Assembly (NCBI GenBank): GCA_041689615.1
Contig: JBDNFW010000039.1
Location: 32,465 to 96,464, forward strand
From: Gammaproteobacteria bacterium
GTDB lineage: Bacteria > Pseudomonadota > Gammaproteobacteria > Eutrophobiales > Eutrophobiaceae
Direction: 5' to 3'
Length of the DNA stretch: 64,000 nucleotides
Part shown: positions 25,404 to 49,392 of the stretch, piece by piece
Layout of the letters: each line of letters starts with the position of its first letter
Position numbering within the stretch: position 1 is the first letter of the stretch
Notes under the pieces: generated by a model
Told to the model about the DNA's origin: nothing
The model's database searches: none
The model's input: the letters and a program-made list of their open reading frames with translations, nothing else
Translations under genes and position numbers: made by a program

Positions 25404-25671
25404 TAATTTGTTTATATCAGTAATCTTTTTGCATAACTGGTTTCCTAACATATAGGATCCTTCAGTTACATTATAGAAGAATTTGTAAAGCCTTATATAA
25501 ATGGCAAGATATCACTAAAGCATGATAATGTTGCAAAATATAAGGAATATGCGTAAATATACGGAAATTTTAAAAGAAAAATACCTTTCTCTAAGGATGA
25601 AATAAATAAATCTTATGAGAAGTATTATTCATAGAGAGTATTTCAAAAAATGTACGTTTATACTAAATTTA

Positions 25672-27426
25672 TCAATTGAGTTTATATAGTCTGGCCAAAA
25701 TAACCTCCCGACCACTGACCAAAGTAATTTTTTTCTCAAATACGATAGAAACATTCGATGGTAATTTTTCCTTTGATTGCAATAGATTTTGAAATTCTTT
25801 TTCCATGCCCTCATAGCCAGAATCATTATGAACATAAACATATTTAATCCAGGAATAATCTTCCTGAATCTTAGTCAATGGAAGAGAAAGCAAACGTAAC
25901 GCCAACTTAACTTTTTCTTCATGTTGATGAGAAATAAGAAAATTGTTTGCAATTACCGAGCAGGACGTATGAAAGCGGATATAGTGACCATCATTAGGTA
26001 GCGCTAAAACGACACCAGGGTCTTCATTGCATTGTCGTTTAAAAAGAGGGTATATATCGCGTGTTGCTTGATAATCACGTTCCAAACCGAGCGGATATAA
26101 TTTAAACAATTGTGTAAATACAGGTTGATATACAAGTAGAGACAAAAAAACGGTAACTAATAAAATTAACCTTGAGCTACTGGAATGCTTCTTACTTAAA
26201 ATATCGCTTACTAATAGTAAGGGAAGATATAGAGCAAAGGACCCATAGTAATGCAGCCTAAATTGTTGCCACAGCAGAAAAATACCAAATAGTGAAAAAG
26301 ATAAAAAATAAATATTTTTTAATCGTTTATCATTAATGTATAAGTAATATATAGCAATAAGAGATAACGGAATAAGAAAAAATAAATAGGAATAAAAAGC
26401 TGCTGTACTTCGCCAGCCAAAATCACGCACAAAACTAAATCCCCCTTTAATTTCACCAAATTGTTTTAATATACCTATATCGCCTTGAAAGAATCGGAAA
26501 CCCTGATGAATCTGCGAGAAAACAATAAGACTCATACATACCAAAATACAAATTAACAAAAAGAGACTGCGCTTTGAGTATTTAAAATAATTTACATACA
26601 GAATTATCAAAGATGTGCAAATCGAAATAAATAGATGAAACCAAGAAAGCGTATAAAAAGAAAACTGGCCTGCAAGGAAAGGTTCTGATGGCAAGACAAC
26701 CAGTAAGGTAAACAACAACAAACTTATGGAAAAAAATACGATTGACCTTTGGCTGGCTATTCCTTCACGGTACCAAATAATTAATATCGACACCAATAAA
26801 GGTATTTGTAAAATAAAAAGACTATTATGAAAGGCTGGAGCAATTCCAAGAACCATAGCGAATAAAATTGCCCTTCTCTTATTTTCTAAACTGTCAAACC
26901 AATACAAGCCGCAACACAAACTAGCAAGAACAAAAGTATATTCAATATAATGATGATCTAATACACCAAAACCATGTAAGCCCTGTGTTAAGGGAGAAAA
27001 AGCAAAGCAGAACATTGCGATAGTCAAACGAGAATTTGAGAGATTTAACTTTTTACATACACATATAAACAAGACTGCATTGACGAAAACAAATGCTGGA
27101 GGTGTACGCCATAAGATAAAAAGAGGATCAACATCAAAAAGGGATGATAAAAATAATGTCAAATATCCTATAACAACCGTATAGGCCCAAGGCCAAGTTA
27201 ACCAACTTCCCTCTGGTGCATGTATTTTTGAATCAAATTGATAAAAATTTTGTGGATTTGCTATGAAATCCACAAATCGCCTGGCATGATAAAATGAATC
27301 ATGGCCAACTGGTATATATTCCTCCTCCAAAAGACCGGAGAAAGTCCACAACATTGCAAAATAATACGCAATGCAAGCACCCGTAAACACAATCAATATT
27401 GGAATAATATTTTTACGAATACTCAT
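25672..27426 (-). CDS. Polytopic GT-C-like membrane protein (putative lipid-linked-sugar glycosyltransferase)
   Basis: 584 aa, about 13 TM. First-loop HDSFYHARRF motif analogous to GT-C D-x-x-Y acceptor-loop motifs. No WWDYG oligosaccharyltransferase motif. Confidence 0.5.
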   Translation of the reverse strand: MSIRKNIIPILIVFTGACIAYYFAMLWTFSGLLEEEYIPVGHDSFYHARRFVDFIANPQNFYQFDSKIHAPEGSWLTWPWAYTVVIGYLTLFLSSLFDVDPLFILWRTPPAFVFVNAVLFICVCKKLNLSNSRLTIAMFCFAFSPLTQGLHGFGVLDHHYIEYTFVLASLCCGLYWFDSLENKRRAILFAMVLGIAPAFHNSLFILQIPLLVSILIIWYREGIASQRSIVFFSISLLLFTLLVVLPSEPFLAGQFSFYTLSWFHLFISICTSLIILYVNYFKYSKRSLFLLICILVCMSLIVFSQIHQGFRFFQGDIGILKQFGEIKGGFSFVRDFGWRSTAAFYSYLFFLIPLSLIAIYYLYINDKRLKNIYFLSFSLFGIFLLWQQFRLHYYGSFALYLPLLLVSDILSKKHSSSSRLILLVTVFLSLLVYQPVFTQLFKLYPLGLERDYQATRDIYPLFKRQCNEDPGVVLALPNDGHYIRFHTSCSVIANNFLISHQHEEKVKLALRLLSLPLTKIQEDYSWIKYVYVHNDSGYEGMEKEFQNLLQSKEKLPSNVSIVFEKKITLVSGREVILARLYKLN

Positions 27427-27548
27427 AGAATTAGATTTATCACCCTTTGATTGATATTAACAAAAAGAAAAAACATACTTTCATATCCTGACACAATAAT
27501 ATTTCAATGATGCATACTAAATTTCTATTGGTGCTTCTATTTTAATGT

Positions 27549-29129
27549 TTATTTATCAATTTCTAGTAATACTGAAATAATTTCTCCGCCATATTCAGGC
27601 GGGTAAAAAGTTTGTCGTAATATCCACGAAATATTTTTTACTCTATCAACTGGATACAAAGGCTCATGTTCTCTAAGTGCAGATGCCACAATAAACATAT
27701 AATGGCACTGCGTTAATTCATTTATAAAATCTTCTTGACCGACGTTTTGCAATGGTGGAATAATAACTTTACGCTTACTGTATAACATGACAAATTCTTG
27801 ATGGATTGAATAAATGCATTTATCCTGAGGAACAACTTCTTTTATATCAATGGTTGATTCTATCAACCTCTTTTTAAAAATTAGATGCTTAACCATTTTT
27901 TCAGTATCCATACCAGTAAGCCAGTTCCTATCATTAGTAAGAGACTGTATATTTTCCCCCGGGTTAGTTAACAATCGATTTGTCATAAACATTAAACATG
28001 GAAAAATTGTAATTACAATCAGAAATGGAATGGACAGATTAAAGAAAATACTTATATTTTTATTATTCTGCTTAAATAAAGTTGAAGTAGTAACTTGTAT
28101 ATAAAACAATACAAATGGAATTATGACATAGATAAAACGAACATTTTGATCTGAAAAATTCCAGATAAAAATCAATCCTAGATAAATTACAACATAGAGC
28201 GCATCTAATGATAAAATAATAATGCGCCGGTATAAAGCAAAACACGTTGTTAATATTACAAGACCTGCTAAAACAGCTGTTCCAATGTTAATTACCGTAT
28301 TAAATTGTAACTGTAAACCCAACCAGAACGTTTTTAATTGAAACTGTATTATTGTACTGATTCCAGCCCAAACTCCTCCATACGCATCAATAAAACTTTT
28401 ATATCGTTCCAGAAATGCATTATTAAAATAGGACTGTTCATAATCTATACCATTACTTACTAAAGACCATATCAACCAGGGTATTAATATGATTATTGCA
28501 GTAAAGACAATTTTTGTTTTATCCCGACGATAAACAGCAATAAGTAAAGCAATAACGAGTGATATCCCAACGCTTCTGGTTATTAATGCAAGTCCACATG
28601 TAAATGCGGAAAGATATAGCCAATTATCCGTGCTATTTTTAGTCTTGGAAAAGCACCACAATGTCAACAATACAAATAGTAAGTATAAATTTTCACTCCA
28701 TAACTCAGTGGAAAATAATAGAGTAGATGGAAGAAGTAAAAATAATATCGCATTTATCAGAGCATTAGCTTTAGCTAGACCCTCTTTAACCTGCCAATCA
28801 ATATAAAATAAACATACAGGCAACAGAATTATGGAGGTGGCAACACTTGCCAGAATTATATTGTCACTCCCTGCGCCAAAAATACTTAAGTAAAATGGGT
28901 ACATTGGAGGAAAGCTTCTGTATGCCATCGCTTGTTCCAAGACAGGCAAATTCTCAGCGTTCCAATTTGAAAAATAGTCTGCTTGTAGTAAGTATATAAA
29001 GCTGTCAGTCCAAAAGCCGGGGTTATCATTAAATGAAATAAAAAAATGAATAATCAACGAAAATAATAATAAACCCCATAAACAGTAATACCAATTAAAG
29101 GACAAGTAACCTTTAGTTCGCTTTATCAT
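27549..29129 (-). CDS. Polytopic GT-C-like membrane protein with C-terminal soluble domain (paralog of 30526-32082)
   Basis: 526 aa. WTDSFIYLLQADYF...PMYPFYLSIFG aligns with HDS...SANYMLMALYL...PLFPFVLALTG of the 518-aa protein at 30526. Confidence 0.5.
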   Translation of the reverse strand: MIKRTKGYLSFNWYYCLWGLLLFSLIIHFFISFNDNPGFWTDSFIYLLQADYFSNWNAENLPVLEQAMAYRSFPPMYPFYLSIFGAGSDNIILASVATSIILLPVCLFYIDWQVKEGLAKANALINAILFLLLPSTLLFSTELWSENLYLLFVLLTLWCFSKTKNSTDNWLYLSAFTCGLALITRSVGISLVIALLIAVYRRDKTKIVFTAIIILIPWLIWSLVSNGIDYEQSYFNNAFLERYKSFIDAYGGVWAGISTIIQFQLKTFWLGLQLQFNTVINIGTAVLAGLVILTTCFALYRRIIILSLDALYVVIYLGLIFIWNFSDQNVRFIYVIIPFVLFYIQVTTSTLFKQNNKNISIFFNLSIPFLIVITIFPCLMFMTNRLLTNPGENIQSLTNDRNWLTGMDTEKMVKHLIFKKRLIESTIDIKEVVPQDKCIYSIHQEFVMLYSKRKVIIPPLQNVGQEDFINELTQCHYMFIVASALREHEPLYPVDRVKNISWILRQTFYPPEYGGEIISVLLEIDK

Positions 29130-49285: not shown

Positions 49286-49325
49286 TGCTTCCTCGATGAC
49301 GCAACCAACAATATTGAATTCTTTT

Positions 49326-49354
49326 TATTATGGAATAAAAAAAACCCTCCAAAG
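49326..49354. terminator. Bidirectional Rho-independent terminator between pilA and the GT-C/TPR gene
   Basis: AAAAAAAA-CCCTCC-AAA-GGAGGG-G-TTTTT. On the minus strand the hairpin is followed by a U8 tract. Confidence 0.7.
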
Positions 49355-49392
49355 GAGGGGTTTTTACGATAACTAGAATAAAACTATTATTA

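Follow-up and report, generated by a model that had tools for sequence, protein, structure and literature searches.

We describe here the glycan region of a 64-kb window, the whole stretch of DNA analysed, from a gammaproteobacterium of the order Eutrophobiales (contig JBDNFW010000039.1, positions 32,465 to 96,464; coordinates are window positions throughout). The region is probably a composite locus, in which a module for glycosylation of the type IV pilin PilA, organised in the style of TfpW of Pseudomonas aeruginosa but with a new donor logic, adjoins an ATP-binding cassette (ABC)-transporter-dependent cluster for a methylated polysaccharide, together with Gtr-like units composed of family 2 glycosyltransferases (GT2) and membrane glycosyltransferases of the GT-C fold. 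Gene products are named by family or fold and length (Table 1), and the loci of other genomes carry the prefix L. The initial annotation of this DNA had left the acceptor of the glycans wholly open. The neighbourhoods of the gene for F622, a GT-C enzyme of 622 aa, now argue for the pilin as the acceptor of this enzyme.

F622 follows pilA on the same strand after a gap of 107 bp. The start of pilA had earlier been placed at 49938, whereas a mature-type pilA begins at Met 49815. A profile search with F622 homologues provided the best 80 loci from species-representative genomes, mostly of uncultured Gamma- and Betaproteobacteria. A pilin open reading frame (ORF) is located within 4 kb upstream of the F622 homologue, and on the same strand, in 63 of the 71 loci that were long enough for this count; the gap has a median of 93 bp and does not exceed 300 bp in 54 cases. 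Control intervals included a pilin in 0 of 54 cases downstream and in 0 of 48 cases at 5-9 kb upstream. An orthologue of GT2b, the F622 partner in the window, is found in 59-62 of the 80 loci (280-515 bits), mostly directly downstream of the GT-C gene, and a homologue of GT4_401, a glycosyltransferase of family 4 (GT4), comes after the GT2 gene in 19-30 of the 80. The synteny with the pilin, together with the frequency of the GT2b orthologue, thus points to a pilin glycosylation module in the style of TfpW, with a polyprenyl-phosphate-sugar synthase in place of the D-arabinofuranose pathway. In the loci L003 and L004 (58% identity), the order pilS-pilR-pilA-F622-GT2 is followed by unrelated housekeeping genes, so that the pilin module does not depend on the remainder of the island. 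Tandem duplication of the F622-like GT-C is common (111 ORFs in the 80 loci). Two or three tandem copies lie behind one pilin gene in L007 (9929-13706), L015, L017, L059, L073 and L079, perhaps a sign that a pilin receives more than one sugar or is modified at more than one site.

TfpW (AAM52060.1) is a protein of 646 aa with 11 transmembrane (TM) segments, which is encoded immediately downstream of pilA, contains a DDX motif in loop 1 and C-terminal tetratricopeptide repeats (TPR), and is required for O-glycosylation of the Pa5196 pilin (10.1101/2020.04.19.049825). By this published description of the pilin arabinosyltransferase of P. aeruginosa group IV strains (Pa5196, PA7), F622 resembles TfpW in its position and strand relative to pilA, in its length, in its multi-TM GT-C domain, and in a periplasmic C-terminal TPR domain, which comprises residues ~410-620. 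The loop-1 DD motif consists of D28 and D29, right behind TM1, both of which are invariant across 20 homologues. F622 differs from TfpW in that a DPM1/ArnC-like GT2 adjoins it in about 60 of the 80 loci, in place of the genes for phosphoribosyl pyrophosphate-derived D-arabinofuranose (DPPR synthase and DprE1/E2), none of which turned up in the window, nor as a recurrent neighbour in the 80 loci. No species named as a host of TfpW is represented among these best 80 loci. Beyond the stop of pilA and ahead of the F622 start there is a GC-rich, terminator-like hairpin, CCCTCC-TTT-GGAGGG followed by T8 (49345-49359, minus strand). It resembles terminators known in other species from the intergenic space behind pilA, and the study of TfpY reports such an arrangement for other pilin accessory genes (PMC11841053).

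The donor side of the module was assigned from structure and family matches. GT2b has similarity in the PDB to an archaeal dolichyl-phosphate-mannose (Dol-P-Man) synthase (E value 3e-19) and to ArnC (E value 1.3e-15 over residues 3-277), and its top NCBIfam match is AglJ (E value 5.9e-35). A second enzyme, GT2a, aligns along its whole length with the GtrB structure 5EKP (E value 5e-103), and also matches ArnC (E value 5e-53) and, in NCBIfam, PgfS/ArnC; by this similarity it is a GtrB orthologue, predicted to make an undecaprenyl-phosphate (Und-P)-linked sugar. C-terminal TM helices are present in both. The window thus encodes two polyprenyl-phosphate sugar synthases, in agreement with the lipid-phosphate-sugar logic proposed in the initial annotation.

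In the scheme that we infer for the acceptor, the sugar and the order of steps, GT2b would load a nucleotide-sugar-derived sugar onto Und-P on the membrane's cytoplasmic side. The lipid-linked sugar would cross to the periplasmic face by means of a flippase encoded outside the window, and F622 would transfer the sugar to Ser or Thr of PilA, with the pilin held by the periplasmic TPR domain. The module, consisting of pilA, F622, GT2b and perhaps GT4_401, would amount to TfpW logic with a DPM1-type donor pathway. A GtrA-like gene is present in just 3 of the 80 F622 loci, so that in this family the flippase is as a rule unlinked or unconventional. The number of N-x-S/T sequons per pilin is no different beside C584-like genes (1.35; see below) and beside F622-like genes (1.5), and therefore does not discriminate between N- and O-linkage; the PilA sequence of the window has zero sequons.

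The pairing of a polyprenyl-phosphate hexose synthase with a GT-C enzyme is also a feature of protein O-mannosylation by the Dpm1/Ppm1 and PMT/TMTC systems of eukaryotes and actinobacteria, and in structure F622 is matched best by Pmt2. TMTC enzymes likewise bear C-terminal TPRs. F622 is distinguished from these enzymes by the lack of a Pfam PMT or TMTC (DUF1736) match, by its proteobacterial host, and by its predicted acceptor, the pilin. To our knowledge only two enzyme classes are established in pilin glycosylation, namely the Wzy_C-type O-oligosaccharyltransferases (PglL/TfpO/TfpM) and TfpW with the arabinofuranose pathway. In the literature library searched, our queries on pilA-linked STT3-like or TMTC-like enzymes found only the work on TfpW, and no paper on a pilA-linked pair of a Pmt-like GT-C and a GT2 or on a pilA-linked STT3-like family.

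All six of the large polytopic proteins are GT-C enzymes, as had been suggested, and they belong to four families which share no detectable sequence similarity: A518/B518, D526/E518, C584 and F622. The tandem paralogues A518 and B518 have 70% identity, and both, together with D526, match Pfam PMT_2 (PF13231; gathering cut-off 26.1 bits). E518 has no family match of its own and is placed as a PMT_2-type enzyme solely through its paralogy to D526 (26% identity over 435 aa; E value 4e-24), a relationship which the initial annotation had recognised. The D526 family is narrow, with syntenic copies beside suhB in L085 and L086. C584 and F622 were assigned by their STT3/AglB-like and Pmt-like folds; a phmmer search against the PDB gave no match for F622, C584, D526 or E518. 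Of the three large proteins for which family searches had been advised, only the 526-aa protein gave a Pfam match, the 584- and 518-aa proteins giving none. The loop-1 motif that had been ascribed to all three is found as DSxxY in D526 and E518, while C584 contains DSFYH, i.e., DSxY, and is without detectable sequence similarity to the other two.

C584 combines a 13-TM GT-C fold with a C-terminal globular domain, in the manner of STT3 and AglB. Invariant in 25 sequences of its family are D43 (in GxDSFYHARR), D157-H158-H159 and E325, which, judged from their position, are candidate equivalents of the catalytic residues of the oligosaccharyltransferases (OST) AglB and PglB. In contrast to STT3, AglB and PglB, the family has xxDGH at the position of WWDYG, within the consensus PGVVLAxxxDGHYIRFHT at the start of the C-terminal domain; C584 has no Pfam match, STT3 included, even at E ≤ 10, and scores 46.8 bits against TIGR04154, for which the cut-off is 450. 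The profile of the family had no match among PDB sequences, and retrieved 339 clusters at E ≤ 1e-30 among 1.84 billion representatives.

The neighbourhoods of the C584 family were counted in 80 metagenome loci. A polyprenyl-phosphate GT2 lies within 3 kb in 19 of 36 loci, a homologue of the methyltransferase MT_243 directly upstream in 18 of 50 (29 of 80 loci have one), and GtrA (PF04138, E value 1e-19) within 3 kb in 7 of 36 (19 of 80 overall). A pilin is found within 3 kb in 7 of 36 loci, and any type IV pilus gene in the locus in 14 of 36. In L090, L115 and L128 the order is pilR-GT2-MT-C584-pilA-sulfatase-family membrane protein-pilB, and in L158 it is pilA-F622-GT2b-x-C584. The order C584-MT_243-GT2a-GtrA of L111 is like that of the window, in which, however, suhB and the SpoU gene are inserted and GtrA is missing. 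The GT2a-MT_243 pair is kept in L111, L086 and L033, in the last with a GtrA gene next to it, and MT_243 appears as a conserved partner of GtrB-like GT2 and STT3-like GT-C genes. These partners, a synthase for an Und-P-linked monosaccharide, GtrA and a methyltransferase, are closer to the donor logic of DPY19 and PMT than to en bloc transfer. The type IV pilin is the best candidate acceptor of C584, weakly supported and far less secure than for F622. The sulfatase-family membrane protein between pilA and pilB (690-720 aa; L090 10655-12724, L115 10549-12711, and L128) belongs to the family of phosphoethanolamine-type transferases, and suggests a second pilin modification in these organisms. In L096 (Ga0316204_10000259, 386-16948), the interval from pilS/pilR to pilA is taken up by two GT2 genes and five GT-C genes, of which three are F622-like, one is of the PMT_2 type and one is C584-like; the window is thus not the only case of GT-C genes crowded at a pil locus.

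We propose that GT2a, MT_243, A518, B518, D526, E518 and C584 may form periplasmic modification systems of the Gtr type, which would add single sugars from Und-P donors. As in the three-component GtrABC systems of Shigella and Salmonella, and in the O-antigen side-chain systems of Klebsiella and Citrobacter youngae (PMC11127046), an Und-P-sugar synthase (the GtrB orthologue GT2a) is combined with GT-C enzymes, here beside an ABC-dependent polysaccharide cluster. Unlike in these systems, no GtrA, SMR or MATE flippase is encoded in the window (GtrA does occur in L033 and in 19 of 80 C584 loci), five GT-C enzymes share one or two synthases, and the conserved methyltransferase partner MT_243 is without a Gtr counterpart.

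The segment from the helix-turn-helix (HTH) gene to GT4_330 (32.1-44.8 kb) includes the Wzm/Wzt exporter and the cytoplasmic GT4 and GT2 enzymes which the initial annotation had named and which Pfam matches confirm; Wzt also matches TagH/Wzt in NCBIfam. In the ABC-dependent route the polymer is completed in the cytoplasm on undecaprenyl diphosphate (Und-PP) (PMC11127046). By analogy, a methylated polysaccharide would be assembled in the cytoplasm with Und-PP as its carrier and leave through Wzm/Wzt, with the carbohydrate-binding module (CBM) of Wzt probably reading the methylated chain end, whereas initiation by a WecA-type phosphoglycosyltransferase (PGT) and ligation by WaaL would be provided from elsewhere in the genome. 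The cluster is similar to those of Escherichia coli O9a and Klebsiella pneumoniae O2a in its Wzm, Wzt-CBM and cytoplasmic glycosyltransferases, and in methyltransferases that could cap the chains. It differs from these in being fused to a pilin module and in the lack of a recognisable WbdD-like kinase-methyltransferase terminator in the window; none of the five methyltransferases of the cluster could be assigned as a chain terminator.

As had been stated earlier, no PGT, Wzx, Wzy, WaaL/Wzy_C or GtrA family was matched among the membrane ORFs of the whole 64-kb window. Inspection of the intergenic gaps revealed no hidden small membrane ORF, and tblastn of a bona fide GtrA against the window gave noise only. 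In E. coli O9a and K. pneumoniae, the prototypes of the ABC-dependent route, the genes for WecA and WaaL map away from the O-antigen cluster, and the lack of a PGT and a ligase here is therefore to be expected, not an anomaly as first thought. Nor is the architecture foreign to Gram-negative bacteria, as the initial annotation had implied: periplasmic units of GT2 and GT-C enzymes are established in them, and are documented as side-chain systems on ABC-transporter-dependent O antigens (PMC11127046).

The closest relatives in the genome collection are metagenome-assembled genomes of uncultured Gammaproteobacteria. L001 and L085 (75-82% protein identity) have the same genes in the same order, apart from small differences that include an NKWYS gene beside suhB and, in L001 (75%), genes for SxtJ-like, carbamoyltransferase and GDSL proteins at the position of a 442-bp gene-free gap of the window. 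The more distant L086 (59%) keeps the flanks (BrkB...purM), followed by GT2a-MT_243-SpoU-suhB-D526-SDR...; D526, E518, GT2a and MT_243 are retained, A518/B518 and C584 are missing, and other transferases are present. In L001, L007 and L009 the cluster that follows the pilin module likewise begins with an orthologue of the HTH gene, and the gene content past this orthologue varies among the three, as expected for a polysaccharide locus. The region is thus a lineage-conserved, internally variable glycan locus and not the strain-specific island for which the initial annotation had wanted a synteny check.

Several observations weigh against the composite locus as we have drawn it. The F622 family does not contain the loop-4 motif of TfpW, YX6PFX7P (0 of 20 sequences), and has YX6P...L(H/Y)HD conserved instead. 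No GtrA, SMR or MATE flippase was found in the 64-kb window. C584 is encoded 22 kb from pilA, and a pilin within 3 kb accompanies only about one-fifth of its homologues. Wzm/Wzt follows the pilin module again in the relatives L001 and L007, and a related Wzm (239 bits) does so in the distant L072, so that the ABC cluster and the pilin module may be functionally linked and not merely adjacent. Finally, the exported glycan may be an O antigen or another glycoconjugate.

One alternative is that the region is a single conventional ABC-transporter-dependent O-antigen locus, to which the adjacency of pilA is incidental synteny. The presence of Wzm/Wzt, cytoplasmic glycosyltransferases and methyltransferases is in keeping with it, as are the precedent for GT2 and GT-C side-chain systems on such O antigens (PMC11127046) and the PMT_2/ArnT-like and ArnC/GtrB-like matches. 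We nevertheless consider it unlikely, given that in 63 of 71 genomes, from two proteobacterial classes, the F622-family gene comes right after a pilin gene, that L003 and L004 keep pilA-F622 without any polysaccharide cluster, and that the TPR domain and the TfpW precedent favour a protein acceptor.

The recurrence of Wzm/Wzt behind the pilin module bears on a further reading, in which the whole region from pilA to purM would be one PGT-independent pilin glycosylation supercluster. Und-P would be primed by the DPM1/GtrB-like GT2 enzymes, the glycan would be extended by the cytoplasmic GT4, GT2 and methyltransferases and transported by Wzm/Wzt, and the four GT-C families would attach it to the pilin or elaborate it there. 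With Wzm/Wzt as the membrane carrier, the missing flippase would also be explained. If true, this would represent an archaeal- or eukaryote-style Dol-P-type route of protein glycosylation in a gammaproteobacterium, including an STT3-like enzyme that lost WWDYG. We regard this reading as distinctly unlikely.

The initial annotation itself favoured an actinobacterial-style periplasmic line, in which the six GT-C enzymes polymerise a glycan on an unknown acceptor without a PGT-primed carrier. It is true that a span of 30 kb encodes six GT-C enzymes and two polyprenyl-phosphate sugar synthases, that the 64 kb contain no PGT, and that multi-GT-C pil loci such as L096 occur elsewhere; the use of polyprenyl-phosphate sugars by several GT-C enzymes is shared with the mycobacterial Emb/Aft/Mpt assembly of arabinan and mannan. 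The distribution of the six enzymes over four sequence-unrelated families, each with its own conserved contexts, argues against one unified assembly. Moreover, the window is without CBM-bearing Emb- or Aft-type enzymes and without DPPR-synthase or DprE genes, the cytoplasmic GT4 and GT2 enzymes together with Wzm/Wzt indicate a polymer that is most likely made in the cytoplasm and then exported, and an unlinked PGT is the norm for the ABC pathway. An actinobacterial-style line is accordingly quite improbable. It is very improbable that C584 is a true OST which moves the Wzm/Wzt-exported Und-PP-linked polysaccharide en bloc to the pilin or another protein and replaces WaaL/PglL, since, for all that its STT3/AglB fold with the C-terminal domain, its conserved candidate catalytic acidic and His residues, the lack of WaaL and PglL in the window, and the STT3-like genes beside pilA in some loci are in its favour, WWDYG is absent, homologous modules include an Und-P-monosaccharide synthase and GtrA and are paired with Wzm/Wzt in 0 of 80 loci, and L086 keeps D526, E518, GT2a and MT_243 without C584.

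The compositional break was verified in 1-kb windows, in which the GC content is 0.29-0.34 at 18.8-24 kb and at 25.6-49 kb, and 0.36-0.44 elsewhere. The 24 glycan genes (18.85-23.8 and 25.67-49.29 kb) have a mean GC of 0.332±0.020 and a third-position GC (GC3) of 0.250, compared with 0.402±0.024 and 0.310 for the other 30 genes of the window (Mann-Whitney, p = 9e-10 for GC and 5e-7 for GC3). From suhB to pilA there are exactly 20 ORFs, where about 20 had been estimated. As low GC also spans 18.85-23.8 kb, the suhB/SpoU pair (GC 0.38-0.41) is embedded in the glycan region and does not form its boundary. It is a housekeeping pair, found at the same place in L085 and L086, and no part of the glycan machinery. 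A search of the window for a tRNA, as a signature of a recent island, found none, and no integrase or transposase domain turned up in the Pfam scans of its ORFs. The remaining membrane proteins of the window are a CDP-alcohol phosphatidyltransferase, a phosphatidylserine decarboxylase, BrkB and an AI-2E transporter. A 533-aa ORF (10851-12452, plus strand) has no Pfam match at E ≤ 0.001, and the gene at its syntenic position in L086, beside BrkB, matches FimW_N; upstream of the glycan region there may thus be one more gene related to type IV pili.

The 442-bp gap where the pilin module meets the wzm cluster contains, 3 bp upstream of the gene for the ArsR-like HTH protein, a perfect inverted repeat of 20 bp with a 7-nt loop (44829-44875; CATGTACGCTATTATGTTCTA...TAGAACATAATAGCGTACATG), which may be an operator or a bidirectional terminator. 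The ORFs for Wzt and the 391-aa protein overlap by 68 bp (39751-39818), the TTG start of the latter probably having been called too far upstream. The SDR enzyme next to D526 matches PRK11908 in NCBIfam with 93.5 bits, which is under the cut-off.

Table 1. Features of the glycan region and adjoining genes, in order of window position (SDR, short-chain dehydrogenase/reductase; SAM, S-adenosylmethionine).
Feature	Position	Strand	Basis or remark
A518, ArnT/PMT-like PMT_2 GT-C, tandem paralogue 1	18852-20408	-	PMT_2 54.6 bits
B518, PMT_2 GT-C, tandem paralogue 2	20471-22027	-	PMT_2 48.5 bits
GT2a, GtrB-type polyprenyl-phosphate glycosyltransferase	22097-23059	-	Two C-terminal TM helices
MT_243, class I SAM methyltransferase, 243 aa	23062-23793	-	Pfam Methyltransf_23
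SpoU-family methylase	23828-24586	-	Pfam SpoU_methylase
suhB, inositol monophosphatase family	24609-25403	+	Pfam Inositol_P
C584, STT3/AglB-like GT-C, C-terminal globular domain	25672-27426	-	Fold match
D526, PMT_2 GT-C	27549-29129	-	PMT_2 34.1 bits
SDR nucleotide-sugar enzyme, UDP-xylose synthase/ArnA-decarboxylase-like	29315-30286	+	Pfam Epimerase, GDP_Man_Dehyd
E518, GT-C, D526 paralogue	30526-32082	+	~9 TM-like segments
GT4_330, cytoplasmic GT4, 330 aa	32099-33091	-	Pfam Glycos_transf_1
GT2_262, soluble GT2, 262 aa	33123-33911	-	Pfam Glycos_transf_2
FkbM-type methyltransferase, 299 aa	33950-34849	-	Pfam Methyltransf_21
359-aa protein of unknown family	34956-36035	-	Pfam at E ≤ 10, noise
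Three consecutive class I SAM methyltransferases	36138-38577	-	Pfam
391-aa protein of unknown family, weak beta-propeller signals	38643-39818	-	Pfam at E ≤ 10, noise
Wzt, ABC ATPase with C-terminal carbohydrate-binding domain	39751-41028	-	ABC_tran 83 bits; Wzt_C 31.0 (cut-off 30.4)
Nucleotide-sugar dehydrogenase, 454 aa	41040-42404	-	TIGR03026 314.9 bits, above cut-off
SDR epimerase/reductase, 327 aa	42456-43439	-	Pfam
Wzm, ABC-2 permease	43443-44279	-	Pfam ABC2_membrane 69.9 bits
ArsR-like HTH protein heading the wzm cluster	44272-44826	-	Orthologue at cluster start in L001, L007, L009
GT4_401, GT4, 401 aa, often the third pilin-module gene	45269-46474	-	Pfam
GT2b, DPM1/AglJ/ArnC-like polyprenyl-phosphate glycosyltransferase, F622 partner	46513-47385	-	PDB and NCBIfam matches
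F622, Pmt-like GT-C, loop-1 DD motif, C-terminal TPR domain	47417-49285	-	Predicted pilin glycosyltransferase
pilA, type IVa major pilin, 140 aa	49393-49815	-	Pfam Pilin 92 bits and N_methyl
pilR and pilS	50123..53046	-	Pfam; sucCD beyond

In scores of gamma- and betaproteobacterial genomes, a TPR-bearing Pmt/TMTC-like GT-C and a DPM1-like synthase are encoded behind pilA, and a separate STT3-like family without WWDYG forms modules of GT2, GtrA, methyltransferase and GT-C genes, some of them beside pilA and pilB. Concrete, testable hypotheses on the acceptors can now replace the earlier statement that the acceptor was unknown. If these enzymes act on pilins, protein glycosylation of the PMT type, and possibly of the STT3 type, would be common in Proteobacteria. 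It would then provide a new mechanistic basis for pilus-specific phage resistance and antigenic variation, as well as small two-gene modules for glyco-engineering.

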